Of a DNA stretch of 50,712 bases, positions 14,451 through 39,329 are shown in pieces. Source of the DNA: an uncultured Gammaproteobacteria bacterium (GTDB lineage Bacteria > Patescibacteriota > Patescibacteriia > UBA9934); assembly GCA_964462325.1 (NCBI GenBank), contig CAYWYQ010000004.1, positions 1 to 50,712 on the forward strand. The letters run 5' to 3'. The notes below the pieces were generated by a model. The model worked only from the letters and a program-made list of their open reading frames with translations, made no database searches and was not told the DNA's origin. Both the position numbers and the translations under genes were made by a program. How positions within the stretch are numbered: position 1 is the stretch's first letter; each line of letters starts with the position of its first letter.

Positions 14451-14517
14451 CGAGGTTCAACCTCGAGGTTCAACCTCGGATGTGGATAAGTGGATCGGAC
14501 CTTGAGGTCGGATCTCG
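14451..14517 (+). repeat. Palindrome-DnaA-box module, copy 1
   Basis: 2x GAGGTTCAACCTC, TGTGGATAA (14481-14489), gt, GGATCGGACCT, tg, AGGTCGGATCT. Confidence 0.85.
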
Positions 14518-14562
14518 GAAACCCACACGAATACTGACCATAAAAAAACTGACCATTTTTGG

Positions 14563-15111
14563 TCAGTTTTGTCGTTTGTGCCATGCTTCTTTCGTAAGAA
14601 GCCAGACTTCTTCTTCCGTATGATTTGGATCATGGAAAGATCTACTAGGTTCAATGCGTAGCAACTTTGCCCCATGCTTTTCTTTCACGCGATGCGATCC
14701 AATATTGCCGCGCGCATTCATGAAGATGAGTTCGCTGAATCCGGCGACATCGAAAGCGAAGTCATTGACCGCTGCTGTTGCCTCGGTCATGAATCCCTGA
14801 CCCCAGTACGTAGTACCGAGCCAAAACCCGCGATTGCCGCTTGTGCTTGATCGCGTCAATTCCACGCAGCCTATCATGGTGTTTGGACTGTGCTTTTCAT
14901 TGATCGTCCACATCCATCGTGTCTTTCCAAGTTCTGGAAAAACGATGTCGTCAAGGTAGCGTTGTGCACCATCTTCGGGGTATGGCCATGGGCATGTCTT
15001 GGTCATATTCCGTATAATCTCCCAGCTGGAGAATAAATGCTGATACCTTTCGATATCTGCACGGGTGATGCAACGGAGCACGAGCCTCTCTGTCTCTAGT
15101 TTTGGAACCAT
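14563..15111 (-). CDS. RimJ/RimL-family GNAT N-acetyltransferase
   Basis: LETERLVLR, GFWL...WGQGFMTEA, N..S.RV.EK.G; strong SD AAGGAGG. Confidence 0.9.
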   Translation of the reverse strand: MVPKLETERLVLRCITRADIERYQHLFSSWEIIRNMTKTCPWPYPEDGAQRYLDDIVFPELGKTRWMWTINEKHSPNTMIGCVELTRSSTSGNRGFWLGTTYWGQGFMTEATAAVNDFAFDVAGFSELIFMNARGNIGSHRVKEKHGAKLLRIEPSRSFHDPNHTEEEVWLLTKEAWHKRQN

Positions 15112-15213
15112 TATTCCTCCTTACTATGTCACTATCAGGAAAAGAGATGTCTGTCAATGGATAGATAGGAAGAAAAAAGAGAGCAATCACTCTCTTTTAC
15201 GGGGCAAAGTAAT

Positions 15214-15516
15214 CTAATGATGCATGCGTACTTCATGCTTATGAATTTCATCTTTCATCATGATATGCATATCACTTTTCAAGCTCCATAGCTTTCGGTC
15301 AAGATAGTCCTTGGTGACCATCTGAGACTCAAGGGAATCGACTCTCGAGTCAAGGGAATCGACTCTCGAGTCAAGGGAATCGACTTTCGATTCGAGGGAA
15401 TCGACTTTCGATTCGAGGGAACCGACTTTCGATTCAAGAGAATTAAAGCGCTGGTCCATAGAGTTTGAAAATACTTGAATTGCATTGAGTATTTCATTCT
15501 TACTTATATCATTCAT
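15214..15516 (-). CDS. Small coiled-coil protein with heptad repeats
   Basis: (SLESKVD)n followed by MVTKDYLDRKL. Confidence 0.75.
   Translation of the reverse strand: MNDISKNEILNAIQVFSNSMDQRFNSLESKVGSLESKVDSLESKVDSLDSRVDSLDSRVDSLESQMVTKDYLDRKLWSLKSDMHIMMKDEIHKHEVRMHH
15326..15442. repeat. In-frame 21-bp tandem repeat, about 5.5 copies
   Basis: gagtcaagggaatcgactctc and variants. Confidence 0.9.
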
Positions 15517-15576
15517 AAAATAGAGGGGGAGTATAAACGGGAAGATACTTTTATAATATCAAAATTACGAGAAATA

Positions 15577-15601
15577 TAAAATCGAGCTTTTGCTCGATTT
15601 T
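15577..15601. terminator. Intrinsic terminator of rpmA
   Basis: aaaatcgagc tttt gctcgatttt hairpin at the rpmA stop. Confidence 0.6.
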
Positions 15602-15878
15602 ACTTTGTATCAACTCGGACGAATGTCTTCATTTTAAGTGCTCCGTGGAAATTTGGAACCTTTTTCTTGAAGTACTTTACCGTTCCTTCTACTTTTGCAA
15701 ATAATGTGTCGTCTGAACCTCGACCAACATTTGCTCCAGGACGGTATTTTGTTCCTCGTTGTCTTGCGATGATCATGCCAGCCTTTACGACTTCACCATC
15801 AGTCTTTTTTAGGCCAAGTCGCTTTGATGCGGAATCTCGACCGTTGGAGGTGCTACCCTGTGCTTTTTTATGAGCCAT
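15600..15878 (-). CDS. rpmA: 50S ribosomal protein L27
   Basis: [31 protein letters not shown]. Confidence 0.97.
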
Positions 15879-15887
15879 ATCTCTACT

Positions 15888-16004
15888 CACGTATCTTTTT
15901 CTCCATCTACTGTGTCGATCATTTCCGCCCTCCTCAACGTACCTTTTAGTACGCCTCGTCGTTGCTCAATGACTCTCCTTGTATCTGAAGAAAAATCTTA
16001 CGTG
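15888..16004 (+). repeat. GTAC-hairpin foldback element
   Basis: cacgtatctttttctcca...CGTACcttttaGTACGcctcg...ccttgtatctgaagaaaaatcttacgtg. Confidence 0.8.
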
Positions 16005-16026
16005 CGTTATGTGATGTTTGCTGGTT

Positions 16027-16128
16027 AAATTTGTGAACTATCGTCATAAAACGACACTTTTTACTCTCCGTACTTATCCAGTACGCATCGTTTTGGCGTT
16101 TGTTTTTCAACAATATTTCATCAAATTT
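16027..16128 (+). repeat. GTAC-hairpin foldback element
   Basis: aaatttgtgaa...CGTACttatccaGTACGcatcg...ttcatcaaattt. Confidence 0.65.
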
Positions 16129-16251
16129 TCCTCAACTCACCTTGCTTTTTTGTTGATGTGATCGCATCTTCCTTAGGAATGACCGAAATCTTCAACAAGC
16201 ATTATTTATTATCAATACCGTCCAATAGGATTATTCCTAGACGCTGGCGAT

Positions 16252-16280
16252 ACTCTACTAAAAACAGAGAAATTTGTCAA
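16252..16280 (-). promoter_or_regulatory. Putative sigma70 promoter of rpmA
   Basis: TTGACA-N17-TAGAGT on the minus strand. Confidence 0.5.
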
Positions 16281-16328
16281 TATGAATACATATAGAAAAA
16301 TGTTTATAAAATGGTATTATGTCTGCGT

Positions 16329-16556
16329 ATGAATGACCGTATTGAAGAATTGCTTGTACTCATAAGGCCGCGACTCGCGATGCATGGCGGAAATGTACGT
16401 TTTGTTGATTTTGATGAAGAATCTGGTTTGGTACGTGTGAAGCTTGAAGGGGCCTGTAGCGGCTGCCCACTTTCAGAGTTAACATTGAAGGCAGGTATTG
16501 AAGCATTATTGATGTCAGAATTGGAAGAGGTAAATGAAGTGATAGCAATTGATTAA
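16329..16556 (+). CDS. NifU C-terminal/Nfu-type Fe-S carrier
   Basis: IRPRL.MHGG.V and L.GACSGCP.S..TLK.GIE motifs. Confidence 0.92.
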   Translation: MNDRIEELLVLIRPRLAMHGGNVRFVDFDEESGLVRVKLEGACSGCPLSELTLKAGIEALLMSELEEVNEVIAID

Positions 16557-16950
16557 CATGGATATTTTTAAGCAGATGAATCAATGGTCTAAACTTGGGC
16601 CAGAAAAAAATATTGGGAGGATCTCTTTGATCACATCTCTTTTATTATTAGGGGTATCTATCCTCATGATTTGGTGGTTTTTATTTCCGGAGATTCTCGA
16701 TCAAAATGTCGTTCCACTGCATTATAATATTTATTCAGGTGTTGATTATGTTGGAGTTTGGTGGAAAATATTTACCATTCCAGCATTTTTATTGGCTGCT
16801 ATTATTGTAAACGGCATCCTCGCAAAGATTTCAGTAAAAAAAGATCCTATTCTTCCGGTGCTATTTCATATTGTTTCAATGCTTATAGCGTTCTTTTTAT
16901 TCATTGCCAATATCTTTGTCGTTCTTTTAAATATTTCATACTATGGTTGA
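16549..16950 (+). CDS. Three-TM membrane protein (DUF1648-like)
   Basis: VPLHYN...GVD motif; directly upstream of mraY. Confidence 0.7.
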   Translation: MINMDIFKQMNQWSKLGPEKNIGRISLITSLLLLGVSILMIWWFLFPEILDQNVVPLHYNIYSGVDYVGVWWKIFTIPAFLLAAIIVNGILAKISVKKDPILPVLFHIVSMLIAFFLFIANIFVVLLNISYYG

Positions 16951-17998
16951 TACATTTGTCATTGCCAAAATACTCGCATTAACCACCATTGCTTTTGTTT
17001 TGACGCTTGTCTGGACTCCTGCTTGGACAAGGTTTCTGTATAAGTACAGAATGGGAAAGTCACTTCGTAGTGCAAAACAAGCACCGATTTTCACCAAGAT
17101 GCACAAAAAAAAGAAAGGCACTCCTACAATGGGAGGTGTGCTCATTTGGGGAACGGTGCTCTTTATGGCGGCTTTTTTTCTGATAGCGGCACATGTTGCC
17201 CCTGATTCTTTTCTTGGAAAATTACAATTTTTAACGAGGGGACAGACATTATTGCCGCTTGCTTCCCTCGTTGCGGCTGGCATTGTCGGTCTATTAGATG
17301 ATTTTTTCAATGTTCGTGGAATCGGAAAAAATGGAGGTGGTGTTGAAATTCAGCATCGTTTATTTCTCTACACCGTTATTGCTGCTATTGGTGCATGGTG
17401 GTTTTACGATAAATTAGATTGGGATTTACTCCATATCCCGTTCTTAGGAGATTTTAATATTGGTGTTTGGTATATCCCATTATTCTTAGCGGTAATTGTT
17501 GGAACATCATTTTCTGTGAACCAAACAGATGGTTTAGATGGGCTTGCAGGAGGAACACTTATTTCTGCTTACTCTGCATATGCAGTCATTGCTTTACTGC
17601 AAGGCAGGTTTGAATTGGCAGCATTTTGCGGTGTTGTTTCAGGAGCATTACTCGCTTTTCTCTGGTTTAACATTTACCCAGCGCGATTCTTTATGGGGGA
17701 TACGGGTGCGATGTCCTTAGGGGTTACATTAGGAATTGTTGCCATGCTTACAAATACAGCATTTGTACTTCCAGTAATTGGTATTATATTTGTTATTGAG
17801 GCAATTACTACAATTATGCAGCTTGGGTCGAAAAAGATTCGGAAGAAAAAAATATTCCGCGTTGCTCCCATTCATCATCATTTTGAAGCACTTGGATGGC
17901 CAGAACCCAAAGTTGTGATGCGTTTCTGGGTTGTTTCTTGGATTGCAGCGGCGGTCGGTATTATTATTGTGATTCTCGATACATCGTATTTCTCTTGA
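16943..17998 (+). CDS. mraY: Phospho-N-acetylmuramoyl-pentapeptide transferase
   Basis: KKGTPTMGG, DD, NQTDGLDGL, FMGDTG, APIHHHFE. Confidence 0.97.
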   Translation: MVDTFVIAKILALTTIAFVLTLVWTPAWTRFLYKYRMGKSLRSAKQAPIFTKMHKKKKGTPTMGGVLIWGTVLFMAAFFLIAAHVAPDSFLGKLQFLTRGQTLLPLASLVAAGIVGLLDDFFNVRGIGKNGGGVEIQHRLFLYTVIAAIGAWWFYDKLDWDLLHIPFLGDFNIGVWYIPLFLAVIVGTSFSVNQTDGLDGLAGGTLISAYSAYAVIALLQGRFELAAFCGVVSGALLAFLWFNIYPARFFMGDTGAMSLGVTLGIVAMLTNTAFVLPVIGIIFVIEAITTIMQLGSKKIRKKKIFRVAPIHHHFEALGWPEPKVVMRFWVVSWIAAAVGIIIVILDTSYFS

Positions 17999-17999
17999 T

Positions 18000-19097
18000 A
18001 TGCAAGGAGTTTTGCGCAAGCCTGATCTCGTTTTCGCATTACTATTCGTATGTCTTCTTGTTTTTGGTATTGTCATGCTTCTTTCAGCATCTGGTCCTGT
18101 CGGGTTCGAAAAATTTGGAGATAGTTTTTACTTTTTTAAACATCAATTATTTCAGGGAGTCATTCCTGGTTTGCTTGCATTTGGTGCGGGATACCTTATT
18201 CCGTATAAGGTTTGGAAACGCTATGCATTTCCAATGCTGCTTTTATCAATTCTATTACTTGTTTTGGTGTATATACCTGGCATTGGAACAGATTTTGGAA
18301 CATTCGCAAAAAGTTGGGTGCAATTTGGTCCATTATCATTTCAACCTTCCGAACTTGTGAAGCTGACTTTTCTCTTTTATCTTGCTGCTTGGATGGAAAA
18401 ACAAGGGCAAGGTATACGTTCTTTTCAGGAGGGGTTATTACCATTTTTGATCATTTTAGGAGTAATTGGCGGTCTCATCTTTTTTCAGCCAGATCTTGGA
18501 ACCTTATCGATTATCATCGCCATGTCTATTGTCATCTATTTTATCGCAGGTGGATCCATTGTTCATTTATTGGGAATGAGTACGGCGGGACTTCTTGTTT
18601 TTGGGCTTGCCGTAAGGTTGTCTCCGTACCGGGCAGCTAGGTTGATGACATTTTTACATCCAGAGCTTGATCCGCAAGGAATCGGTTATCAAATCAATCA
18701 GGCCTTGCTTGCAGTAGGATCAGGTGGAATTTTTGGGAGGGGATATGGACATTCCTTGCAGAAATTTCAATATTTGCCCGAGGTGATTGGCGATTCTATA
18801 TTCGCCGTTGTTGCGGAGGAATTAGGGTTTATTTTAACAACAGGATTTATTGTGCTCTTTTTATTATTTATTTCTCGTGGTTTAAATATTGCACATTCTG
18901 CTCAAGATGCATTTGGAAAATATGTCGTAACGGGCGTGATGACTTGGTTCTGTATTCAGGCATTTGTCAATATTGGTGCTATGCTGGGATTGTTGCCTTT
19001 GACCGGAGTTCCTTTGCCATTTTTAAGCTATGGAGGAACATCTCTCATCGTTTCGATGGCAGCAGTAGGGGTTGTCCTTAATATTTCACGTAGATAG
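18000..19097 (+). CDS. ftsW: SEDS peptidoglycan polymerase FtsW
   Basis: FQPSELVK, QPDLGT, GYQ..Q, AEELG, PFLSYGG; lies between mraY and murG. Confidence 0.93.
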   Translation: MQGVLRKPDLVFALLFVCLLVFGIVMLLSASGPVGFEKFGDSFYFFKHQLFQGVIPGLLAFGAGYLIPYKVWKRYAFPMLLLSILLLVLVYIPGIGTDFGTFAKSWVQFGPLSFQPSELVKLTFLFYLAAWMEKQGQGIRSFQEGLLPFLIILGVIGGLIFFQPDLGTLSIIIAMSIVIYFIAGGSIVHLLGMSTAGLLVFGLAVRLSPYRAARLMTFLHPELDPQGIGYQINQALLAVGSGGIFGRGYGHSLQKFQYLPEVIGDSIFAVVAEELGFILTTGFIVLFLLFISRGLNIAHSAQDAFGKYVVTGVMTWFCIQAFVNIGAMLGLLPLTGVPLPFLSYGGTSLIVSMAAVGVVLNISRR

Positions 19098-19101
19098 TAT
19101 T

Positions 19102-20181
19102 ATGCGAAAATCATCAAAAACTCATGTACTGATGACAGGAGGGGGGACACTTGGTCCGGTAACTCCCTTGCTTGGGATTGTAGAATCTTGGCGCTACATT
19201 GAGCCGACGGTCGACATTTCATGGATCGGTACTATTTCTGGACCTGAAGAAGAATTAGTGAAGGAATACGGGATACCATTTCATACATTATTTGCGCCAA
19301 AACTATCTCGAAGCAATAAATTGAGTTGGATTTTTGTCCTGCCAGCATTGTTTGTAAGCTGCGTACTTGCTTGGCAATTACTGAAAAGAATAAAACCATC
19401 CATTATTTTTAGTGCTGGAGGGTACGTGAGTGTTCCTATTGCATGGATGGCAAAATTGCAGGGAATTCCCGTCTGGATTCATCAGCTGGATTATCAACCG
19501 GGGATTGCCAATAAAGCTATGGCGCCAATCGCAATGAGAATTAGTGCAACATTTGAAAAAGCAATTGAAGATTTTGGGGCAAAAAAGACCATTGTTGTTG
19601 GCGGAGTGATGCGGTTTACGAATGACATTGAACCAACGAATGAGATGAAAAGGAAATTCAACCTTGATTCTTCGAAACCAACAGTTCTGATTACTGGCGG
19701 TGGAACCGGGGCATTGCAAATTAATGAAGCCATGCAAATCATTGGAAAAGAATTGTCGAAAAAAGCAAATATCATTCATCTAACAGGGAAAGGGAAGATG
19801 TTGCCTGGCCTTGAAGAAGTTGCTCCTAATTATTATGCAATTGAGATGCTCACAGAAGATATGTATGAGGCATATGCGGTTGCAGATTTAGTTGTAGCGC
19901 GTGGGGGGCTGGGAACAATGATGGAATTAGTTCGTTTCAAAAAACCGAGTATCATTATTCCTATTTCTCATTCACATCAAGAGTTAAATGCAGCTGTTCT
20001 GGCCGAGGCAAGGGCAGCGGTCGTGCTATGGGCGATGAATCCACAAATGCTCAAGCAAACAATAGAAAAGTTATTGAAAAGTACAGATGAAAGGGATAGA
20101 TTGTCGAAAAATATAAGTGAAGTCATGAGAGTGGATGGTGCGGATGTCATTGTTCAGAAAGTACAAAAACTTATTGTGTAA
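19102..20181 (+). CDS. murG: Lipid I N-acetylglucosaminyltransferase
   Basis: TGGGTLG, GGYVSVP, GGGTGA, ARGG, HQELNA. Confidence 0.93.
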   Translation: MRKSSKTHVLMTGGGTLGPVTPLLGIVESWRYIEPTVDISWIGTISGPEEELVKEYGIPFHTLFAPKLSRSNKLSWIFVLPALFVSCVLAWQLLKRIKPSIIFSAGGYVSVPIAWMAKLQGIPVWIHQLDYQPGIANKAMAPIAMRISATFEKAIEDFGAKKTIVVGGVMRFTNDIEPTNEMKRKFNLDSSKPTVLITGGGTGALQINEAMQIIGKELSKKANIIHLTGKGKMLPGLEEVAPNYYAIEMLTEDMYEAYAVADLVVARGGLGTMMELVRFKKPSIIIPISHSHQELNAAVLAEARAAVVLWAMNPQMLKQTIEKLLKSTDERDRLSKNISEVMRVDGADVIVQKVQKLIV

Positions 20182-20182
20182 C

Positions 20183-20209
20183 AAAAAAGAAGCCTTAGGG
20201 CTTCTTTTT
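20183..20209. terminator. Bidirectional intrinsic terminator
   Basis: aaaaaagaagcc tta gggcttcttttt between convergent genes. Confidence 0.75.
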
Positions 20210-20215
20210 AATCAC

Positions 20216-20503
20216 TTACATCATTGGAGCTTCCTCAGCACTTTCTTCCGTAGGTGCTTCTTCTGCTGGAGCATCCTCCATAGGTGCCTCTTCTGCAGGA
20301 GTTTCCTCTGCTGGCGCGTCTTCCATAGGTACTTCCTCTTCTGACATGTCTTCCTCTACAGCAGGAGTTTCTGCCTCATCTGCAGACTCCTCTACTACGG
20401 GGGCATCTGTTGCTGCCTCTTCTGCTGGCATTGAATTATGGCTGGTCATGTGCATTTCCATTTGGTCATCAGCTACTTCGGTATTACATGTTGTACAAAT
20501 CAT
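20216..20503 (-). CDS. Small acidic protein with an N-terminal C2H2-like motif and E/A/P repeats
   Basis: C-x2-C-x11-H-x3-H followed by (EEAP[AMT])-like repeats. Confidence 0.7.
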   Translation of the reverse strand: MICTTCNTEVADDQMEMHMTSHNSMPAEEAATDAPVVEESADEAETPAVEEDMSEEEVPMEDAPAEETPAEEAPMEDAPAEEAPTEESAEEAPMM

Positions 20504-20649
20504 ACTTATAGTTTAATAATTACTTATAAACAGATTAGCAGAAAAAAGAGGTATGTTCAAAAGGTATTGTGGAGGGGAGGCGCTTGATTTTTTTGCGGGT
20601 CTATGGTATAAATGCGACACAAAATTCAGCACCGTGTACTTTACTTGTA

Positions 20650-20773
20650 ACGATTGTGGTTAAGTTCAACTAGTTTTCAAGAAATGAGCGAGTACATTCG
20701 ATATGTACCCAGATGTACCTTGAGGACGAACGGAGTGAATGACGTAGGAATAATAGAACTTGGACGTAATCGT
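20650..20773 (-). repeat. GTAC-hairpin foldback element abutting tRNA-Lys
   Basis: Paired ends acgatt..aagttc / gaactt..aatcgt; apical GTACattcgatatGTAC. Confidence 0.6.
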
Positions 20774-20849
20774 ACGCCGGTAGCTCAGTTGGTAGAGCGA
20801 GGGCCTTTTAAGCCCGAGGTCGTGGGTTCGAGCCCCACTCGGCGTACCA
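20774..20849 (+). tRNA. tRNA-Lys (anticodon UUU)
   Basis: Cloverleaf with ACGCCGG/TCGGCGT acceptor, loop CTTTTAA, TTCGAGC T-loop and encoded CCA. Confidence 0.96.
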
Positions 20850-21030
20850 AAAAATAATCAGGAAACTGGTTATTTTTTTTTGTCCGAGTCAGCAAGCCAC
20901 CTGCGTGGCTTGCGAGGGGCGAGAACGGCCGGAGCCTTATGCGAGCAGCGGCGAGCATGGCGAGGCCCGGACCTGAATCCCGAGCTTCTGCAGAAGCAAG
21001 AGGTGAAGGCGAGCCCCACTCGGCGTACCA
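20850..21030 (+). mobile_element. tRNA-integrated microelement bounded by a 21-bp duplication of the tRNA 3' end
   Basis: CGAGCCCCACTCGGCGTACCA at 20829-20849 and again at 21010-21030. Confidence 0.75.
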
Positions 21031-21110
21031 TGAAAAAGACGCAGCTGAATGCTGGGTCTTTTTCATTTTGCAACTTAACAACCTGGCTATTGGGCATATT
21101 GCTTAATGAG

Positions 21111-21182
21111 GAGGTCCGACATCAAGGTCCGACCTACTTATCCACAGGAGGTTAAACCTCCGTCCTGCGAGGTTCAACCTCG
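21111..21182 (-). repeat. Palindrome-DnaA-box module, copy 2
   Basis: gaggtccgacatc a AGGTCCGACCT ac TTATCCACA (21138-21146) GGAGGTTAAACCTCC ... CGAGGTTCAACCTCG. Confidence 0.85.
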
Positions 21183-21417
21183 GCTCCGTCCTAATCGTTA
21201 ATCGACTACTCCCTACAACTAATCCTCTACATCCTCTCATGTATACTTGTGGATTATTCTTGACAACATTTTGTATTCAATGCAAACTGAAATTAGTATG
21301 TTGGCTATCGCTCACAATTCCACGCTGGTCATAAAGGAGACTCTTTACTCTCCCTTTATTATTATTCTGGGAATCAAGGGGTATTATGCATCGGTGTAGA
21401 TAAAGCTGATTTATAGC

Positions 21418-21447
21418 AAAGCCCCTTCGTTACGGAGGGGCTTTTTT
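21418..21447 (+). terminator. Intrinsic terminator
   Basis: aaagccccttcg tta cggaggggctttttt. Confidence 0.7.
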
Positions 21448-21517
21448 GATGGATTGAGGAAGAGTTTGTCTTTTTCCTAAGGTCGTCAGGCTTGAAAACA
21501 GTTCATACGGAGTGAAT

Positions 21518-21709
21518 ATGTCAGATGTCATTTTAGGAGTAGAGGTATTTGATGCGGACGTGATTATTCCGTACAAAGAAACTGATTCGGCGTCGAAACG
21601 CCAACCACGTCAAGAGTCCTTTGTCGATACAAAGCTGCAGGAGGTGACGCCGTCCTCGGTACATGAGGATAATACGCATGTAATCCGTAGCATGATTCTC
21701 GATGATTGA
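21518..21709 (+). CDS. Small hypothetical protein
   Basis: ORF with GGAG upstream, followed by a GC-rich hairpin. Confidence 0.45.
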   Translation: MSDVILGVEVFDADVIIPYKETDSASKRQPRQESFVDTKLQEVTPSSVHEDNTHVIRSMILDD

Positions 21710-21820
21710 TCCTTGCTCCGCCACTTCAAACGGAGGTGGCGGGGAAATATTTTATGACTTGCAGAAAGGGACTGCCTTTTCTCCAGGTCATAAAATCTGG
21801 ACAGTAGGGCGGGGTTTGAT

Positions 21821-22447
21821 ATGCACGAAGGAACGGGTCATGGGTTTGATATATTGACAGGTGATTGTCGGAGTGACAGGGTTCCGATTGAGGATGACAT
21901 TACTGGTACAATACCTACCCATTCAAAGTTAGATGCCTCCGCGGAAGAGATCGGCATTCAAGAGGCGAGTCCGGGCATTCGGCTTGTTTGTTGCATGGGT
22001 TCGGATGCGCGCTCCGTGAGCGTACTCAATCGCATGCGGGCAATGGCACAGAGAGGCAGACTGAAGCACTCAATCGACACTGATGTTGTCTTCGTGATAT
22101 GTGGGAATCATGCCTCTCTGATGGAGAAGGTAGAGAGGATTGGTGCAGAATATGTGATTTTCCTCTTCGATACTTCAGGACGAGGTCACTTCACTTGTCT
22201 CACGACGGCAGCGTCGACGAGGCGGAAGGTTCGGTTGCCTGAGTGGGTTTCCGAGGAGGTGTGGGGGATCGCGATTCATCCTAGTGTGAATGCAAGTAAT
22301 TGTGCCGCACAGATTCTCAACCATTCGCTAAATCCGAAGGGGTTCGCGAAGATGCGGGTGGCTCGAGAGCGCATTCGTGCGGGGGATATGTACGTGCGCG
22401 AGCCTATGTATCAAGTTGATCACTATGGGAGGCGTATCTTTTCGTAG
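21821..22447 (+). CDS. Hypothetical protein with degenerate PurE (AIR carboxylase)-like similarity
   Basis: LVCCMGSD, G.GH....AAST and NA...AAQIL...RE in PurE order; SAHR motif absent. Confidence 0.55.
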   Translation: MHEGTGHGFDILTGDCRSDRVPIEDDITGTIPTHSKLDASAEEIGIQEASPGIRLVCCMGSDARSVSVLNRMRAMAQRGRLKHSIDTDVVFVICGNHASLMEKVERIGAEYVIFLFDTSGRGHFTCLTTAASTRRKVRLPEWVSEEVWGIAIHPSVNASNCAAQILNHSLNPKGFAKMRVARERIRAGDMYVREPMYQVDHYGRRIFS

Positions 22448-22494
22448 GATGTAGACACTAATACTTACCCGTGACATATTACGGGTGAAGTCTC

Positions 22495-22529
22495 CTGATC
22501 TTGTATATAACAAGATCGGGTTCTTTTTT
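22495..22529 (+). terminator. Intrinsic terminator
   Basis: ctgatcttgt atata acaagatcgg followed by a T-rich run. Confidence 0.6.
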
Positions 22530-22561
22530 ATTCAGCCTTTAGGATTAAGTCAAGGTTTAAG

Positions 22562-22660
22562 CCGAGGTTGAACCTCGAGGTTCAACCTCGGAAGGGGAGG
22601 TTCAACCTCCGGTAGGTATATGTGGATAAGTAGGTCCGACATCAAGGTCGGACCTTGAGG
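22562..22660 (+). repeat. Palindrome-DnaA-box module, copy 3
   Basis: 3x GAGGTT(C/G)AACCTC, TGTGGATAA (22621-22629), gt, AGGTCCGACAT, CAAGGTCGGACCTTG. Confidence 0.85.
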
Positions 22661-22707
22661 TGCAGAGGTGGCGTCTTCTTATAAGTAAACCTGATATAAT
22701 GTGAACG

Positions 22708-28549: not shown

Positions 28550-28671
28550 GTTTTTTGTACATCACACGGCATGTATGGGGAAGTTTTTCCCTTACTATAC
28601 CCTTGGTTCAAACTCGCCATAGAAGGCTATGAAAAAATCCCAGTCTTTCGACTGAGATTATTTCATGGGTC

Positions 28672-28766: not shown

Positions 28767-28800
28767 AATGGGTCACTATTTCTGTATTACAAACGTAGGA

Positions 28801-28899
28801 TTTTTCTTTTCAGGCTAGGAAAGACGAGGAGCAAGAGTAAGCCGTACTGAAAGGTACGGTGTCGAGCACCACAGTCATGACAACGCCTGAGAAGAAAAA
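28801..28899 (-). repeat. GTAC-hairpin foldback element just 3' of tRNA-Thr
   Basis: Minus strand tttttcttctcaggcgttg...CCGTACctttcaGTACGG...cctagcctgaaaagaaaaa. Confidence 0.75.
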
Positions 28900-28912
28900 G
28901 ACAAGTTTTAAA

Positions 28913-28988
28913 TGGAGCCACCTGGCGGATTTGAACCGCCGGCCTCTACTTTACGAAAGTATTGCTCTACCAACTGAGCTAAGGTGGC
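28913..28988 (-). tRNA. tRNA-Thr (anticodon CGU)
   Basis: GCCACCT/AGGTGGC acceptor, loop TTCGTAA, TTCAAAT T-loop and CCA. Confidence 0.96.
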
Positions 28989-29066
28989 ATATCTGGGACA
29001 TATTTAATCATTTTTACAAAAGATTTTCAAGTTCTTTGACGTATATTCCTGTGGTATAATTTTGTT

Positions 29067-29750
29067 ATGATAAAGCTGAAGGGAGTTTCAAAAACATATA
29101 AGCCAAATATACATGCCCTTAAGCAAGTAACGATTAATATTGAACCGGGTGAGTTTGTTTCCGTCGTTGGGCAAAGTGGTTCAGGAAAAACGACATTTCT
29201 TAAAATGCTTTTTGCAGAAGAGTCACCTTCAAAGGGGAAGGTTGTAATAGGTGATTGGGATATTAGCCATATTAAATCAAGTGAAATCCCTGCTCTTAGG
29301 CGTCAGATTGGAATGGTCTTTCAAGATTTTAAACTTCTGCCTAGAAAAACAGTGTATGAAAATGTCGCATTTGCTTTAGAGGTTGCTGGGGAGTCTAATA
29401 GGCGCATACGCGAAATTGTGCCACAGGTGCTTAAAATAGTTGGATTAGCAGATAAAAAAGATCGATATCCACGGCAAATTTCAGGCGGGGAACAGCAGCG
29501 GGTTTCCATTGCTCGTTCCTTGGTTCATCGTCCAAAAATATTGATTGCAGATGAGCCAACGGGAAATCTGGATGCAATTCACTCTCACGATATTTTAGAG
29601 TTATTAAAACGTATCAATAAAATTGGAACAACGATCGTGCTTGTCACACATGACAGAGATGTGGTCAATGCTTTAAAAAGGAGGGTTATCACCCTTGAAG
29701 ATGGAAAAGTAGTTTCCGATGTTAAACATGGAAAATATTCACTCTCATGA
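29067..29750 (+). CDS. ftsE: Cell division ATP-binding protein FtsE
   Basis: GQSGSGKT, LRRQIGMVFQDFKLL, ISGGEQQR, ADEPTGNLD; adjacent to ftsX. Confidence 0.95.
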   Translation: MIKLKGVSKTYKPNIHALKQVTINIEPGEFVSVVGQSGSGKTTFLKMLFAEESPSKGKVVIGDWDISHIKSSEIPALRRQIGMVFQDFKLLPRKTVYENVAFALEVAGESNRRIREIVPQVLKIVGLADKKDRYPRQISGGEQQRVSIARSLVHRPKILIADEPTGNLDAIHSHDILELLKRINKIGTTIVLVTHDRDVVNALKRRVITLEDGKVVSDVKHGKYSLS

Positions 29751-30658
29751 GACTTTTTACTTCAATTACTCGTGCTTTTAAATTCGCATTACAGAATTTT
29801 TTTAGAAATTTCTGGCTTTCTTTGGCTACGATAACCATCTTTTTGCTTACACTGGTTACAATCAATATGATCATTCTGGTAACCGTGATTGCAAATTCAT
29901 TGGTAAAGTCGGTAGAAGAACGTGTTGAGGTTACCTTTCATTTTACTCCCGAAACATCTCTCGATTTGGCACAATCGGCTCAAGAATACCTTCTTGGATT
30001 TGATCAAGTAAAAACAGTATATTTACGAACAGCAGACGAAAACTTGGATAAATTTAAAACTTCATTTGGTGATGATGATGTTATCCTGAGTTCTCTTGAT
30101 GAGGTTGGCGATAATCCATTTGGTCATTCTGTGATTATTTCTGCAGAATCCTCAAAAGATTTTCCCTTTATTATCGAAGCAATAGAAACGCCAGAATTTA
30201 CCGATTCTATTAAAGATAAGGATTATATTGACTCTGCGGAAACGATTGCGAAGATTGAACGTATTAGTGAGCAGGTAAAATGGGGAGGAATCGGATTGTC
30301 TGCCTTTTTTGTTATCGTAGCTGGGCTTATTATCTTCAATACCATTCGTGTTGCAATCTACGTACATAGAGACGAGATCGGTATTATGAAACTTGTGGGT
30401 GCAAATGATTGGTTTGTACGCTCACCGTTTATTATTGAGGCATTACTTTACAGTTTATTGGCGGTTGCGGTCGTGACAATTGTTATTTTACTTCTTTCAA
30501 ATGCAGTTCAAGCAGCGCCAGAGTGGTATTTTGATAGGAATACCATTCATTTTTTCACAGAAAATGCCATATTGGTCTTTGGGCTGCAGGCACTTGGACT
30601 TTCTTTCTTAAGTATTCTAACGACATCCATTGCCATGCATCGTTATTTAAAGGTGTAA
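29747..30658 (+). CDS. ftsX: Cell division permease FtsX
   Basis: RNxxLS, IFNTIRVAI..RDEI.IMKLVGA..WFVRSPF. Confidence 0.95.
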   Translation: MRLFTSITRAFKFALQNFFRNFWLSLATITIFLLTLVTINMIILVTVIANSLVKSVEERVEVTFHFTPETSLDLAQSAQEYLLGFDQVKTVYLRTADENLDKFKTSFGDDDVILSSLDEVGDNPFGHSVIISAESSKDFPFIIEAIETPEFTDSIKDKDYIDSAETIAKIERISEQVKWGGIGLSAFFVIVAGLIIFNTIRVAIYVHRDEIGIMKLVGANDWFVRSPFIIEALLYSLLAVAVVTIVILLLSNAVQAAPEWYFDRNTIHFFTENAILVFGLQALGLSFLSILTTSIAMHRYLKV

Positions 30659-30662
30659 ATAT

Positions 30663-32144
30663 ATGAAGGAAAAATTTGGGCAATATGGTGTCTATCGTTT
30701 TTGGGAGATCTTTCCCGGTGTATTGGTTTGGATGACTATTCTATTAGCAGTAGCATCTTCGTTCTTCTTTCCTCTTGCGGCCATTATTTTTATCATCATT
30801 TTTGACTTATATTGGACATTGCGAGTACTCTATTTTTTAGTGCATGTCAGTGCATCTTATCGTCAATATAGAAAAACGATTCGAGTAAACTGGTACGAAA
30901 AGATACGTAAATTATCTGGTTGGAGAAGTGTGTATCACATTGTATTGTTACCAACATTCAAAGAAGATATTTCTATTTTACGGGAAGCGCTGGATGCGAT
31001 TGTGCGCGGAGCGTATGAGAATGACAGATTCATCGTCGTTCTTGGCGGTGAGGAAAAAGATAAGAAGAATTTTTTACGCTATGTTAAGCAGTTGAAAGAT
31101 GAGTATAAAGATGTCTTCTTACACTTAATGTTTACGGTACATCCGGCGGGGCTTGATGGTGAAATTCCGGGTAAGGGTTCAAATTTGAAGTGGATGGCGG
31201 GCAAGGTACGTCCTGTGGTCGATAAAATGAAAATTCCTTACAAAAATATCATCGTGTCAGCGTTTGATGTAGATACTATTGGTCATGACCAGTATTTTGC
31301 ACGCCTAACATATCTATTTAAAACGGTGAAAAATCCGTTAAGAACGAGCTATCAGCCACTAACACTTTTTTCGAATAATATTTGGTATGCATCTGCACCA
31401 GTTAGAGTTGCATCATTTGGAACAACATTTTGGCTTTTATCGGAATTAATTCGTAGTGAGCGCATGTGGACATTCTCATCACACTCAATGCCATGGCAAA
31501 TGTTGGTAGATGTTGGGTATCATGAACCGGATCTTGTATCAGAGGACTCACGAATTTTCATGCAAGGCTTCTTACATTATAAGGGGGATTATCGCGTGAC
31601 GCCTATGTTTATTCCAGTGCACATGGATGCGGTTACGGGCAGTGGTTTCATGGATAGCTTAAAGGCGCTTTATAAACAGCAACGTCGTTGGGCTTGGGGA
31701 GTAGAACATTTGCCATATATGTGGGGAAAGTTTAAAGAAAATACAGAGATACCATTTCGTCGTCGTTTTGCGTTTATGTTCAATCATGTGGAGGGAATGT
31801 ACACATGGGCGACGGCACCAATTTTGATTTTTGTTTTAGGATATTTACCATTCATGACGACAGGAGGCTCAACAAATATTCTTATTTCAAATTCACCATT
31901 TACACTTGAACGCATGATGCAAATAGCGACAATTGGTGTATTCGCAACTGGTTTTATGAGTTTCTTATTTTTACCAAAACGGCCAGAAGAAATTAGTAAG
32001 CGCAATTGGCTCATTATGTTATTGCAATGGGGATTGATGCCAGTGACATTTGTGCTTTTTGGAGCATTTCCGGCGATTGATGCTCAGACGAGATTTATGC
32101 TAGGGAAGTATTTGGGGTTTAATGTCACAAAAAAAACGCGGTAG
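30663..32144 (+). CDS. Processive GT2-family membrane glycosyltransferase
   Basis: GKGSN, DVD, SED and QQRRW (QxxRW) motifs; multiple TM helices. Confidence 0.88.
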   Translation: MKEKFGQYGVYRFWEIFPGVLVWMTILLAVASSFFFPLAAIIFIIIFDLYWTLRVLYFLVHVSASYRQYRKTIRVNWYEKIRKLSGWRSVYHIVLLPTFKEDISILREALDAIVRGAYENDRFIVVLGGEEKDKKNFLRYVKQLKDEYKDVFLHLMFTVHPAGLDGEIPGKGSNLKWMAGKVRPVVDKMKIPYKNIIVSAFDVDTIGHDQYFARLTYLFKTVKNPLRTSYQPLTLFSNNIWYASAPVRVASFGTTFWLLSELIRSERMWTFSSHSMPWQMLVDVGYHEPDLVSEDSRIFMQGFLHYKGDYRVTPMFIPVHMDAVTGSGFMDSLKALYKQQRRWAWGVEHLPYMWGKFKENTEIPFRRRFAFMFNHVEGMYTWATAPILIFVLGYLPFMTTGGSTNILISNSPFTLERMMQIATIGVFATGFMSFLFLPKRPEEISKRNWLIMLLQWGLMPVTFVLFGAFPAIDAQTRFMLGKYLGFNVTKKTR

Positions 32145-32147
32145 GGG

Positions 32148-32271
32148 GTCCGCTTATATACTGGCGTACTTTGTTTTCACATCTGTGCGCTTCGCTGCAC
32201 TGTACGTTCTAGTACACTTCCGCTCAGTGCTCGATGATTCAAACAAATTACATCCAGTCTATTGCGCGGAC
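32148..32271 (+). repeat. GTAC-hairpin foldback element
   Basis: gtccgcttatatactgg...TGTACgttctaGTACActtccg...ccagtctattgcgcggac. Confidence 0.8.
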
Positions 32272-32272
32272 T

Positions 32273-32413
32273 TCCGCTTGAAAATGAGCGATCTATCGGC
32301 TCATAATTTCGGATTCATCCCCTGCCTGCCGGCAGGCAGGTCACTGTACGTTTCAGTACAGCTGCGGTAATCCTTAATTCTTTACCGATATTTCATCTCA
32401 TTTTCTGCGCGGA
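32273..32413 (+). repeat. GTAC-hairpin foldback element containing a CCTGCCTGCCGGCAGGCAGG palindrome
   Basis: tccgcttgaaaatgag...CTGTACgtttcaGTACAGctgcg...ctcattttctgcgcgga; palindrome at 32321-32340. Confidence 0.8.
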
Positions 32414-32469
32414 CGGACTCATTGCGCAACGAAAGGCCCGTACCTCAATCTATTGAACCGGTTTTGAAC

Positions 32470-32651
32470 CGAGGTTGAACCTCGAGGTTCAACCTCGCAC
32501 GGTGAGAAATGGAGGATATATTGTATTTATTGATAATTTGTAAAAAAAACACATATACGAGGTTCAACCTCTACTTTGCTCCAATTTCGAGGTTCAACCT
32601 CCTATGGATAAGTAGGTCGGACCTCGGTGTGGATAAGTAGATCAGACCTTG
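32470..32651 (+). repeat. Palindrome-DnaA-box module, copy 4 (expanded)
   Basis: 4x GAGGTTnAACCTC; TATGGATAA gt AGGTCGGACCT; TGTGGATAA (32628-32636) gt AGATCAGACCT. Confidence 0.85.
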
Positions 32652-32724
32652 TATTATTTTGATGTCACATATGTCATTCATGGTACGGTGGATATAAGAG
32701 GTGAGGAAACGCAAGGAGGTGAAC

Positions 32725-33315
32725 ATGAAATGGCAGTGGTTTTTGATGGTCGTGTGCATGTCTGTGTTGTTCGGATGCCTACCTAGCGAGGAGTATGCCA
32801 AAAAGTACATGGAGAATAATGTAGGGGTGACATATTTCGGTATATTACAGAGTGCTGATTTGAAAGAGTCGATTACTTTGTTTGAGTATCGGGATGACTA
32901 TCTGGCATTTAGCCTATTCGAAGAAGGTTTCGATGTGCTAGATCGCCGCCGTGTGACCGTTGCTACTTGCCTTGATTTCTCGATCTCTGTCGAAACACTC
33001 GCCGGGTCAAAGTCAGTTTTTGCTGATGAATGCATTCTCTTTGAATGGAGGGTGGTGAGCGAAACCGGTGAATTATCAATTGTCCAGATCATTAGCGTTG
33101 TGCACCTAACGTATAACGGTGATCTGAATCCAGACGAGACAGAATTTGAAGTAGAGGTACTCGTCTTTGGTGATTGGCATGGTACGATTCTCTTGCATCG
33201 TTGTAAGGAATATAAGTGTCCAATGATCATGGATGTACTTCACGATCGAAAAACAGTTCGTAGAGAACTGGAAGACGATGAGGAGATGCCGGCATTCGAT
33301 ACGGACTCACTCTAA
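32725..33315 (+). CDS. Hypothetical lipoprotein
   Basis: SD AAGGAGGTG; signal peptide ending in LFGC lipobox; terminator follows. Confidence 0.7.
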   Translation: MKWQWFLMVVCMSVLFGCLPSEEYAKKYMENNVGVTYFGILQSADLKESITLFEYRDDYLAFSLFEEGFDVLDRRRVTVATCLDFSISVETLAGSKSVFADECILFEWRVVSETGELSIVQIISVVHLTYNGDLNPDETEFEVEVLVFGDWHGTILLHRCKEYKCPMIMDVLHDRKTVRRELEDDEEMPAFDTDSL

Positions 33316-37700: not shown

Positions 37701-37889
37701 CCCGAACTTTACTCTATTCCGACTGAGTCAGATGCTATAGAATATTTTGGTAATGATTGGGCACAACGCATTATAGATGTACAAACACCATTTTTGACAT
37801 TGTTTGAAATGAATGGGAAGGATATTTCTCAACTCGTTTCTTCCGAAGTGTCGGTTATGTACACATCAAGTGAATTGAGGGCTAAATAA
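34728..37889 (+). CDS. Large secreted/surface D/T/S-rich protein
   Basis: Signal peptide, many DxDxD-type motifs, internal repeat, SPNGGE Ig-like module, C-terminal VFYIGND.KRH domain. Confidence 0.8.
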   Translation: MNKIKKVLNFRIFIVFAALGFFVFLTVISGDLIRAYTTGSYTKDTYVRYATPGETNILIGYITLQDPVADTVVTNGSTAVVTAGDSLTAFPSTHKFFDPAGDGAYADNDGIISSSDTVLDSGDTIITTAVGLLETFNTSFTETGANTAIGWIDNTTDDNILTSDEDLVHILVNTAQVADGLLVREFETDIVYAADAYGDTYNITNDNAIVEDSDADGFFSAGDAVLIAGPGNVRTFGAGDNVCFDASVSADAEYDSGEIIWLDVAGDCSSFTTSTDSILIGSSAPSGTSTEFGTENEVGYLDGSDDDAYTCTRTGDCETIVYSGVNGTDLTIGGNLTTNTAFFDSSSEATDGISTTGDAWDGGINITTTNRFFYSETTGGEKKFVYIDADTNTDFTSTDPILQIIDKGADNIVSGQDFRSFKDNDYRLIDRDDDDIYSSGSDGIIASDDNDLESSDTVIYDEVSGAGTDSLVAFSSTHRFHDHDSSGSYADEDDIINDSDSSTYYNADDLLSIGFKDNGGGPAPQDADIDAFYVYEMTGTACAGSGTDTLLGSVTGTVLDQNIAITRAPWTASDSVNLCIYMDAASGLTAGRKLSLSTGTTNPMTFSSGVDSSMNVRAGDDNQTIFMDGITPNISPSDLNPSETATYTISYTTSVTHASGLNILNTFPSGYDVSGGTASCTDDGATISGTSTIIGQLLGVAGTGAEITSGSAIVCTLSGVVNPSAEEETGAFLIGIGSNLTPDEGDDSQTVTIATSSSSQTPSNPPPTWHVSVESPNGGEIYQQSDTIEIKWVYSGTGSSDYINIYYSEDSGESWNIIAKNTENDGLYNWESLNINSSDITVKVATTDLVEDLAFDISDNKFTIGDFSDEVNNLLDDSEDLDEGELEVCGGSSLPSDINIGDNIVGINADGVQYPSVFYIGNDCKRHPYLTEKHYFSYGYDDFSNIEVYTTTILEQISEGKTMPVKSGSILIKTPDDPIVYYVKDTGDLLNPELYSIPTESDAIEYFGNDWAQRIIDVQTPFLTLFEMNGKDISQLVSSEVSVMYTSSELRAK

Positions 37890-37934
37890 GCTCTCTTTTC
37901 TCATGGAAGAACATTTGTTAAACTGCATGACGAT

Positions 37935-38147
37935 ATGACAAATAAGAAACCAACATTTTCAGAGGCATTTAAGGAGCTTGAACAGCTCACACAATGGTTC
38001 GAAAACGAAAACACTGATTTAGACGAGGGAATAGAGAAGTTCGAACGCGGTTTGGAACTTGCTCAAATATGCAAGAAAAAGCTAGCAGAAGTGGAAAATA
38101 AGGTCACAACTCTAAAAAAGAAATTTAATGATTTAAACAAAGAGTAA
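37935..38147 (+). CDS. xseB: Exodeoxyribonuclease VII small subunit
   Basis: F.EA..ELE.....E.....LDE....FERG..L...C...L...E. Confidence 0.93.
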   Translation: MTNKKPTFSEAFKELEQLTQWFENENTDLDEGIEKFERGLELAQICKKKLAEVENKVTTLKKKFNDLNKE

Positions 38148-38148
38148 T

Positions 38149-38511
38149 ATGAAAATTCTCCTACGATTACTAATTAATGCTCTTGTACTTCTGGCGATTA
38201 CGCAGATTCTTGAAGGATTTGTCGTAGAGGGATTTTACTTTGCTCTCATAGCAGCGATTATTATCGGATTAATAAATGCAGTTATTAGACCGTTTATTAT
38301 TTTTCTCACATTACCAATTAATATATTGACACTTGGATTATTTACATTCGTGGTCAATGCGCTCATTATCTGGTTTGTAAGTACATTTATTCAGGGATTC
38401 GAGATCACCGGCTTCGGGGTAGCACTGCTTGCCGCTATTATTCTCTGGGCGGTGAGTACTATTACTAATTGGACTATTCGTAAATCAGATGAAACCACAA
38501 GAGCTAAATAG
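38149..38511 (+). CDS. YvlD/Phage_holin_4_2-family membrane protein
   Basis: NAVIRP....LTLP..ILTLGLF..VVNA. Confidence 0.85.
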   Translation: MKILLRLLINALVLLAITQILEGFVVEGFYFALIAAIIIGLINAVIRPFIIFLTLPINILTLGLFTFVVNALIIWFVSTFIQGFEITGFGVALLAAIILWAVSTITNWTIRKSDETTRAK

Positions 38512-38524
38512 CTCTTGTTTCTTT

Positions 38525-39232
38525 ATGCATGAACCTATTACACCTTTTCAGAAAAAACCATTTGTTCTTTCACTCGGCGGATCACTCGTTGTTCCAAACG
38601 GAGGGCCTGATACGGCCTTTTTAAAAAAGTTAAGAAGATTTGTTCAGGTACAAGTTCGATCGGGAAGAAAGCTTGCTATTGTTGTTGGCGGGGGAAAGAC
38701 GGCGAGACATTATATTGATTCAGCGGAAAAAGTAAAATCCATTGAATCGGAAGATTTGGACTGGCTAGGTATTCATTCGACAAGGCTAAATGCACACTTG
38801 CTTCGAACGATTTTACGAGATATTGCGCATCCTGTTGTAATAAAAGACCCAACAAAAACACCGAAACGATGGAATGGAAAGGTGTTAATTGCAGCCGGCT
38901 GGAAACCGGGGTGGTCGACGGATTATGTCGCATGTCGCATTGCGCAGAACATAGGCACTGACACGGTTCTAAACCTTTCTAATATTGAAAAAGTGTATAG
39001 TGCAGATCCTAATAAAGATAAGAACGCAACACCATTTGATGATTTGAGCTGGAAGGATTATCGAAAGATGGTGGGAAATACATGGTCTCCGGGACTATCT
39101 GCCCCTTTTGATCCTATTGCTTCAAAATATTGCCACAAGAATAAAATGCAGGCGATTATCATGAGTGGAGATTTATTGAATGTATCTGCGATGATTCGAG
39201 GAAAGAAATTTACAGGAACAGTTTTAAGTTAG
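38525..39232 (+). CDS. pyrH: UMP kinase, archaeal-type
   Basis: SLGGS, GGGKTAR.Y, D.LGI..TRLNA, PGWSTD, APFDP.A. Confidence 0.92.
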   Translation: MHEPITPFQKKPFVLSLGGSLVVPNGGPDTAFLKKLRRFVQVQVRSGRKLAIVVGGGKTARHYIDSAEKVKSIESEDLDWLGIHSTRLNAHLLRTILRDIAHPVVIKDPTKTPKRWNGKVLIAAGWKPGWSTDYVACRIAQNIGTDTVLNLSNIEKVYSADPNKDKNATPFDDLSWKDYRKMVGNTWSPGLSAPFDPIASKYCHKNKMQAIIMSGDLLNVSAMIRGKKFTGTVLS

Positions 39233-39279
39233 GTCGCAGTTAATAGGATTTAGGGTGTATAATTATCAAAAACCCGTCA

Positions 39280-39329
39280 AAGGTCCGACCTTGAGGTCGG
39301 AACTACTTATCCGTGGAGGTTCAACCTCG
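39280..39329 (-). repeat. Palindrome-DnaA-box module, copy 5
   Basis: AAGGTCCGACCTT gaggtcggaact ac TTATCCGTG GAGGTTCAACCTC. Confidence 0.8.

Follow-up and report, generated by a model that had tools for sequence, protein, structure and literature searches.

The stretch analysed here, contig CAYWYQ010000004.1 of assembly GCA_964462325.1 at its full length of 50,712 nucleotides (nt; hereafter the window), carries five copies of a dispersed, ordered module made of two types of short palindrome and an intervening 9-mer. The A unit is GAGGTTNAACCTC (pattern GAGGT-T-N-A-ACCTC), the box is TGTGGATAA and the B unit is AGGTCNGACCT (pattern (G)AGGT-C-N-G-ACCT(Y)). The five sites described in the initial annotation, 14451-14517 (+), 21111-21182 (-), 22562-22660 (+), 32470-32651 (+) and 39280-39329 (-), were recovered on the strands given there, each reading A units, TGTGGATAA, GT and B units in that order. 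The compensatory swap reported between the palindromes was likewise present, A and B being one 13-mer in which the innermost T-A pair is changed to C-G. The spacing of exactly GT between box and B was found at all six window junctions, and the boxes comprised four perfect copies and two variants (TATGGATAA at 32603 and a degenerate ..CACGGATAA at 39307-39315 (-)). The window contained 12 perfect A units against 0.08 expected, a count reached in none of 100 shuffles, and 13 B sites with at most one mismatch against 0.68 expected, four of them perfect. Perfect copies of TGTGGATAA numbered five, four within modules (14481+, 21146-, 22621+ and 32628+) and one outside (46993-). The box by itself was not enriched in the window (22 sites with at most one mismatch, 14.9 expected), so the non-random signal lies in the combination of the parts and their order. 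The modules are probably non-autonomous mosaics of the repetitive extragenic palindrome (REP) and bacterial interspersed mosaic element (BIME) type, similar to REP doublets forming hairpins (REPINs), which belong to a system of REP-associated Y1/HUH tyrosine transposases (RAYT) and whose box tag would be read by DnaA as a host factor.

Counts of perfect copies in the genome that holds the window (G000; 781,727 bases in 39 contigs, 41% GC, the window being contig C4) were 95 for A, 64 for B and 36 for the box, which GT follows in 20 cases. When up to two mismatches were allowed in each part, 26 junctions of box and B were counted; 23 sites lay within one mismatch of TGTGGATAAGTAGGTCNGACCT, and the strict grammar of an A unit, at most 12 nt, a box and then B fitted 14 loci. 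The enrichment of boxes beside palindromes, which had been proposed as a test, was positive: 21 of the 36 perfect boxes stood within 4 nt of a perfect hairpin, compared with 48 of 763 random 9-mers. Modules held 21 of the 36 perfect DnaA-box 9-mers of the genome. Most had a single box, with two at window positions 32603/32628 and on contigs C5, C10 and C35, and three on C36. Doublets occurred at 24 A-A sites and 17 B-TG-B sites, and the centre bases were compatible with a perfect long stem in 13 of 23 A-A and 8 of 15 B-B doublets.

Two genes of G000 encode Y1_Tnp proteins (PF01797), designated RAYT-1 and RAYT-2. RAYT-1, a single-copy gene of 197 aa on contig C8, is bordered on both sides by an identical 59-nt block consisting of an A unit, a 17-nt linker and an A-A doublet, the right-hand block being followed by TGTGTATAA. 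Together with these A-A blocks the gene constitutes a REPtron, and it is the unit-flanked Y1/RAYT transposase for which the initial annotation had proposed to look. Its Pfam Y1_Tnp score was 39.3 bits (cut-off 23), and the HUH histidines and the tyrosine of RYIHLN were invariant in 10 homologues. The predicted model (pLDDT 89) was closest in the PDB to 4ER8, the REP transposase of E. coli in complex with a REP hairpin (E = 3e-6), which ranked above the TnpA proteins of IS608 and ISDra2. That the module might be a known insertion sequence (IS) end, which the initial annotation had named as a possible refutation, is contradicted by the single-copy transposase with the same block on either side, as against the distinct ends of a multicopy IS200/IS605-type unit. 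RAYT-2 (gene 1252-1869 (-) of locus L015, G000:C10:2462-5788) is 39% identical to RAYT-1 and is flanked by a palindrome of its own of ~40 nt, present in five copies in G000. There is one transposase per repeat family, as described for REPtrons (PMC6006769). At the RAYT-2 locus a promoter-like site, TTGACG...TAATAT, was also noted upstream of rpsB, and its 17-nt spacer holds a perfect TGTGGATAA.

Folded as single-stranded DNA, the A-A doublet formed a stem of 13 bp and the B-TG-B doublet a stem of 10 bp with a 4-nt loop, and doublets in inverted orientation gave one long REPIN-like hairpin. The three intact modules that were folded had energies of -26.6 to -29.8 kcal/mol (z = -7.6 to -9.0), and the 11-12-nt box segment between the two hairpins was unpaired in all folds. 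The 11-mer TGTGGATAAGT is an integral tag of the element: it stays unpaired and holds a constant position at the foot of the B hairpin, usually 0-3 nt from the last A hairpin. These folds, and the position of RAYT-1 between two A-A blocks, support the initial designation of the module as a REP-like element. By the guide rule published for REPs (PMC6006769), a hairpin whose stem has 7-20 bp and whose loop has 2-5 nt carries GTAG or GTGG at a distance of 0-2 nt on its 5′ side; in the copies flanking the RAYT gene, GTGG overlaps the A unit by 1 nt.

The exact module was found in none of 40 relatives, in no public genome contig and no metagenome contig searched, and had no match in plasmid and phage collections. 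The A-A doublet had two isolated matches in other assemblies of the candidate phyla radiation (CPR), neither of them a family: one lay inside a glycosyltransferase-like reading frame (L013) and the other was a single copy (L014). Homologues of RAYT-1 were present in 22 of the 40 relatives, each with its own flanking palindromes. Other CPR genomes share the design of a hairpin joined to TGTGGATAA/TTATCCACA, their stems having other sequences that are still self-complementary. G003, of the same genus, had 15 copies of TTATCCACA-N-AGGCNNAGCCTC, four of which flank its RAYT homologue. G002, also of the same genus, had CAAGGTTNAACCTTG-a-TGTGGATAA(gt) and TTATCCACA-n3-AAGTCGGACATT-gaa-TGTGGATAA, that is, A-like and B-like cores with altered stems and the same box, the AAGTCGGACATT type being flanked by inverted boxes. 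In G034, which belongs to a different family of the order, the unit is a perfect palindrome of 33 nt, TGTGGATAA-AGGGGTCNGACCCCT-TTATCCACA (box-hairpin-box), with 36 strand-wise matches and with copies on both sides of a 164-aa Y1 gene. Perfect boxes stood within 4 nt of a perfect hairpin in 10 of 30 cases in G002 (random 9-mers, 33/576) and in 14 of 28 in G034 (51/540). Among 162 genomes of the order, the B-type design was in high copy in G000 and G034 only and reached one or two copies in six others. Compared across these genomes, the box behaves as an integral tag of the element, kept while the stems change.

An association was also seen around 80 metagenomic loci with RAYT-1 homologues. The proximal flank, defined as lying within 300 bp of the gene, held 12 perfect boxes in 44.8 kb, compared with 3 in 156.7 kb of gene and distal flank (p = 3e-6); with intergenic DNA only, the counts were 11 in 17.8 kb and 1 in 12.5 kb (7.7-fold, p = 0.02). 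The prediction that the box is conserved in the wider family was upheld in part: hairpin and box occur with other stems in G002, G003, G034 and 10 of the 80 metagenomic loci, and the pairing is not general in the transposase clade. In a sample of 41 genomes of the order, perfect TTATCCACA outnumbered the reversed control sequence in 40 (3-72 versus 0-9 copies), the exception being G011 (3 versus 5). The genomes G020 (57 copies of TTATCCACA) and G022 (42) may hold further tagged families.

A second kind of Y1 gene in the relatives, the long type (~285 aa, with a C-terminal helix-turn-helix (HTH)), had GGGGTCAGGTC ends in all eight loci parsed. In three of the eight, a perfect or consensus-compatible box (TTATNCACA) lay just outside the GGGGTCAG end; L130 (G035), L135 (G033) and L038 (G039) are example loci of this gene type. 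In G000, a GGGTCAGGTC end precedes a long-type Y1 remnant on contig C31. A DnaA-domain-IV-like HTH on the transposase was considered as the reader of the box and found no support here. No HTH was found in RAYT-1 or RAYT-2, the long-type C-termini gave only sub-threshold matches to HTH_23, HTH_38 and HTH_28, and profile comparison of the long-type HTH with domain IV of this organism's DnaA returned a probability of 0.8%. Bac_DnaA_C-like tails have been described in subclass 2.1 of Quentin et al. (PMC6006769).

The box matches the DnaA 9-mer consensus TTATNCACA, with 21 perfect TGTGGATAA in modules, and the variants TGTGCATAA and TGTGTATAA depart from it at the N position only. G000 encodes a single Bac_DnaA_C protein, DnaA itself (97 bits), whose domain IV is canonical and aligns with the solved DnaA-box-binding domains 1J1V and 8BTG. 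The same 9-mer is used in the region upstream of dnaA and in a cluster ~7 kb upstream of the gene, where three DnaA boxes fall within 72 bp at C13:8621-8692 (1020-1095 of locus L018, G000:C13:7600-9800). This cluster is a candidate for oriC or for a DnaA-regulated site; the ~500 nt of non-coding DNA after it had no Rfam match.

The five window copies are made up as follows. Module 1 consists of an A-A doublet (14452-14477; two abutting A units, a hairpin as single strand with one internal mismatch), a perfect box TGTGGATAA with GT (14481-14491 (+)) and a degenerate B doublet of GGATCGGACCT, TG and AGGTCGGATCT (14492-14515 (+)). Module 2 runs on the other strand, with a B doublet of one perfect unit and one with a single mismatch (21112-21135 (-)), a perfect box with GT that reads ACTTATCCACA on the plus strand (21136-21146 (-)) and two A units 8 nt apart (21148-21181). 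Module 3 (z = -7.9 as a whole) opens with a 26-nt A-A doublet, perfectly palindromic and forming a 13-bp stem, and a third A unit (22564-22609); its perfect box with GT (22621-22631 (+)) is unpaired in the single-strand fold, and its B doublet (22632-22655 (+)), a 9-bp stem in the fold, lies 52 nt upstream of the start of a P-type ATPase gene. Module 4 has a perfect 26-nt palindromic A-A doublet (32471-32496), an AT-rich linker of ~62 nt (32497-32558 (+)), two more A units (32559-32601) and two tagged B units in tandem, namely the variant box TATGGATAA, GT and a perfect B unit (32603-32624 (+)), and a perfect box, GT and a B unit with one mismatch (32628-32649 (+)). Module 5 has a B doublet of one perfect unit and one with a single mismatch (39281-39304 (-)), a degenerate box that reads CACGGATAA and then GT on the minus strand (39305-39315 (-)) and a lone A unit (39316-39328). 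The AT-rich linker of module 4 recurs at ~60 nt between A units elsewhere (C1:27398-27458, C1:41122-41182, C10:19830-19890, C26 and C22) and could be a promoter-like or easily melted segment; related versions were seen in C35 and C36.

The initial annotation had placed each copy beside an accessory gene, and this was not confirmed: the copies are simply intergenic, as are 24 of the 26 junctions of the genome. Module neighbours in the window, which covers a mur/fts region, are genes for a GNAT acetyltransferase, tRNA-Lys, the P-type ATPase and an FGE-sulfatase-like protein, and unnamed open reading frames (ORFs). The arms GAGGT/ACCTC of A and B resemble Shine-Dalgarno and anti-Shine-Dalgarno sequences and, we presume, might interact with ribosomes if transcribed. 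An Rfam search of the window at the gathering threshold returned two tRNAs only, neither at a module. Self-BLAST of G000 revealed a genome unusually rich in dispersed mosaic repeats (100-800 bp, up to ~30 copies), of which the modules are one layer. Other such repeats, in up to ~20 copies, lie in the window at 32143-32460, 9767-10307, 20779-21071 and 49788-49887, with a third palindrome type, GAAAGGTCCGTACCTC, among them, and an 82-aa ORF at 32122-32370, wholly inside repeated DNA, is probably not a gene. Contigs of public runs covering window positions 14000-33000 start or stop at module edges (14450 and 22561), which makes the repeats a likely cause of the fragmented assembly.

GC skew is strong in G000 (about ±0.14), and the G-rich strand carried the box at 16 of 19 independent loci (binomial p = 0.004), which fits a strand-specific process on single-stranded DNA. 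Joints seen in run contigs link different repeat copies. In a comparison for empty sites only one genome of the same genus gave an alignment, its coding DNA being ~65% identical and too diverged for the purpose; the region upstream of the ATPase gene is short there and lacks repeats, and since synteny differs it is not a true empty site.

The element is very likely of the REP/RAYT class, and the tag is very probably a functional part of it. Whether the tag is read by DnaA, rather than by the transposase only, is an evenly balanced question. In the mechanism we favour, a Y1 transposase would produce new copies by cleaving and joining the single-stranded DNA of replication forks at the hairpins, and new units landing beside old ones would let clusters grow. 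The strand bias would then arise because copying uses the single-stranded DNA of the forks. As a duplex, the tag would be read by the initiator DnaA acting as host factor, and this reading would be the reason why the tag is a consensus DnaA box. The 21 perfect boxes that the family contributes to the genome would be a side effect. A wider scheme, which we put forward only tentatively, is that several CPR lineages harbour REP/RAYT and TIRYT-type hairpin elements tagged by a DnaA box, which would recruit the initiator so that the duplex is opened, or the replication machinery loaded, for Y1 transposition, and would so reshape the DnaA-box landscape; such selfish repeats might double as datA-like titration sites where known initiation regulators are lacking.

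Several results weigh against DnaA-read mosaics of a RAYT system. On the protein side, the sole NCBIfam family matched, REP_Tyr_transpos, scored 41.1 bits for RAYT-1 and 57 for RAYT-2 with a cut-off of 80, and a sequence profile of RAYT-1 and nine homologues found no PDB chain at E <= 0.01. B units flank no Y1 gene in G000, in which the only long-type Y1 is a remnant of ~25 codons (~1500-1600 (-) of L042, G000:C31:6886-8665); the B units may be descendants of the ends of a long-type Y1 element. The canonical GT[AG]G guide was missing at all 190 A flank sides, and the GTAG at B units overlaps the hairpin foot by 2 nt, so that the guide overlaps the stem. Despite its tagged palindromes, the 99%-complete assembly of G002 yielded no RAYT-1-like gene, and its only Y1 is of the IS200 type, on a 1.8-kb contig. 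A perfect box within 300 bp was missing at 70 of the 80 metagenomic loci, and no box-derived 6-mer was enriched beside hairpins at those loci, for which reason a tag general to the RAYT-1 clade was rejected. Evidence that DnaA would bind the module boxes, or that mobility might be tied to replication as the initial annotation had inferred, is indirect and consists of the canonical domain IV of DnaA, the 9-mer upstream of dnaA and the strand bias. The modules, being mostly single-box, differ from datA or oriC with several boxes per locus. Gene orientation is a confounder of the strand bias, and adjacent sites do not count as independent observations. Finally, DNA contigs of four runs from two studies contained no module-removing joints, and modules 1 and 3 were bridged unchanged.

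Within the same REP/RAYT class, the 9-11-nt tag could instead be what the transposase itself recognises, or uses as a guide, on single-stranded DNA; the tag would then correspond to GTAG, and its identity with a DnaA box would have no consequence for DnaA. The distance from tag to hairpin foot is nearly fixed at 0-3 nt (2 nt at every one of the 26 B junctions, and in the relatives 0-1 nt for G003 and G034 or 1-3 nt for G002), which is what the REP guide rule describes (PMC6006769); the tag is also unpaired in single-strand folds, it includes GTGG and, when read on into the first two bases of B, it includes GTAG as well. An arbitrary tag would, however, match the DnaA consensus at 9 of 9 positions by chance with an estimated probability of ~1e-4 to 1e-5, and so improbable a match favours reading by DnaA. 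Moreover, the tag 5′ of the hairpin is TGTGGATAA in G000-B and G034 but TTATCCACA in G000-A, G002 and G003, so that a single-strand reader would see two sequences, or one sequence on opposite sides of the hairpin. Spacing from A to the tag ranges over 1-11 nt in G000, and known guides are only 4 nt long. A guide of this kind is a possible but rather unlikely account of the tag. It is improbable, in our judgement, that the host keeps the units as dispersed DnaA-titrating (datA-like) or DnaA-reactivating (DARS-like) sites, a role that the initial annotation had entertained, the transposase having been only a past means of spread. The share of perfect boxes that lies in modules (21/36), the ~20 tagged palindromes among the 30 boxes of G002 (inspected by eye), which lacks a RAYT-1-like gene, the excess of perfect TTATCCACA in 40 of 41 genomes and the persistence of the box while stems change between species all speak for such a role. 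Its spread is nevertheless patchy, with the B-type design in high copy in only 2 of 162 genomes and the exact module in none of 40 relatives, and copy numbers are so unequal among close relatives that they look like bursts of a mobile element and not like a conserved regulatory device. Most modules, moreover, have a single box, and datA and DARS depend on several boxes together with IHF.

A purely transcriptional role, in which the modules serve as operator or promoter sites or as terminator or mRNA-stabiliser hairpins unrelated to transposition, appears very improbable. Among 20 scorable sites, 14 have the A side toward the 3′ end of a gene; among 25 sites, 14 have a gene start 27-378 nt downstream of the B side; and REPs elsewhere are reported to terminate transcription and to stabilise mRNA (PMC6006769; PMC3733652). 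The relation to genes is not fixed, however, since convergent, tandem and post-tRNA positions all occur; the hairpins of the five window modules are not followed by a U-tract, the transposase gene is flanked by units, and the sequences are species-specific. Three further candidates were dismissed on inspection by eye. A sigma-70 promoter in the box had a poor -10 match, for integron attC sites a cassette array was lacking and the spacing was 1.5-10 kb, and for CRISPR a regular spacing was lacking.

The window comes from a tiny CPR genome with a rich REP/BIME-like system whose tag is the consensus site of the replication initiator, and other CPR genomes also pair the box with hairpins of their own, next to two kinds of Y1 transposase. 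Should DnaA read the tag, the system would be the first in which hairpin-based, single-strand transposition employs the initiator as host factor, and it would be a natural example of DnaA boxes being multiplied by mobile elements in a reduced genome. Box-tagged REPs would offer a testable handle on replication control in CPR, which to our knowledge is otherwise unexplored. Even if the transposase alone reads the tag, a third class of REP tag would be added and REPtrons would be extended to CPR. In practical terms, the repeats break assemblies and create spurious ORFs, probably including that at 32122-32370. In agreement with the initial statement that no description of the module was known, the full-text literature searched, which did not extend to the supplements of PMC6006769, described neither box-tagged REPs nor any REP/RAYT system from CPR/Patescibacteria.

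Among known systems the closest is REP/REPIN-RAYT, exemplified by E. coli TnpA_REP and its REP/BIME repeats. It has in common with the present family short extragenic palindromes in high copy, hairpin doublets, a single-copy Y1/HUH gene flanked by repeats, one transposase per family, species-specific sequences and, for RAYT-1, the best fold match to 4ER8. Published REP/RAYT systems come mostly from Proteobacteria and bear tags of 4 nt, GTAG or CGTC. In the present family, by contrast, the units are only 13 nt long with arms of 5-6 bp, the unpaired tag is a 9-11-nt DnaA-box sequence instead of 4-nt GTAG or CGTC, the protein scores below the NCBIfam RAYT cut-off and the host is a 0.78-Mb CPR genome. 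In BIME-1, two types of palindromic unit are joined by an IHF-binding linker. This anatomy, the RIB-RIP arrangement of E. coli, resembles the module in its two palindrome types, their fixed order and a specific linker that matches a host-protein site, and differs in that the linker here matches, by its letters, a site for DnaA whereas that of E. coli binds IHF. The datA and DARS sites are single conserved loci with several boxes and IHF. They share with the modules consensus DnaA boxes at non-origin chromosomal sites, whereas the modules are ~20 dispersed, species-specific copies with mostly one box each.

Host factors at mobile or hairpin DNA provide further parallels. IHF, Pol I and gyrase bind REPs (PMC6006769), and the outside end of Tn5/IS50 carries a DnaA binding site, with DnaA as host factor (PMC3347997). 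The Tn5/IS50 end is therefore a mobile-element end with a DnaA box, as proposed here, but Tn5 is a DDE cut-and-paste element with double-stranded ends and no hairpins, whereas the modules are hairpin-forming and associated with a Y1 single-strand transposase. In the A-site of the ABC primosome a DnaA box lies in the stem of a single-strand hairpin (PMC6127211). In G034 the 33-nt palindrome, and in G002 the symmetric units, would similarly put the box in a hairpin duplex stem, whereas in G000 it is unpaired between two hairpins; a priming role would be drawn by analogy only. The TIRYT elements, which combine a Y1 protein bearing a C-terminal HTH with GGGG[AT][CG]A[CG] terminal inverted repeats (TIRs), resemble the long-type Y1 genes of the relatives with their GGGGTCAGGTC ends. 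The B unit of G000 (AGGTCNGACCT) and the unit of G034 (AGGGGTCNGACCCCT) have the core of these ends, and G000 keeps a remnant of a long-type gene. According to an explicit statement of Quentin et al. (2018; PMC6006769), the TIR consensus bears no resemblance to a DnaA box, whereas in the loci described here the box lies just outside the GGGGTCAG end in three of eight cases and on both sides of it in G034.

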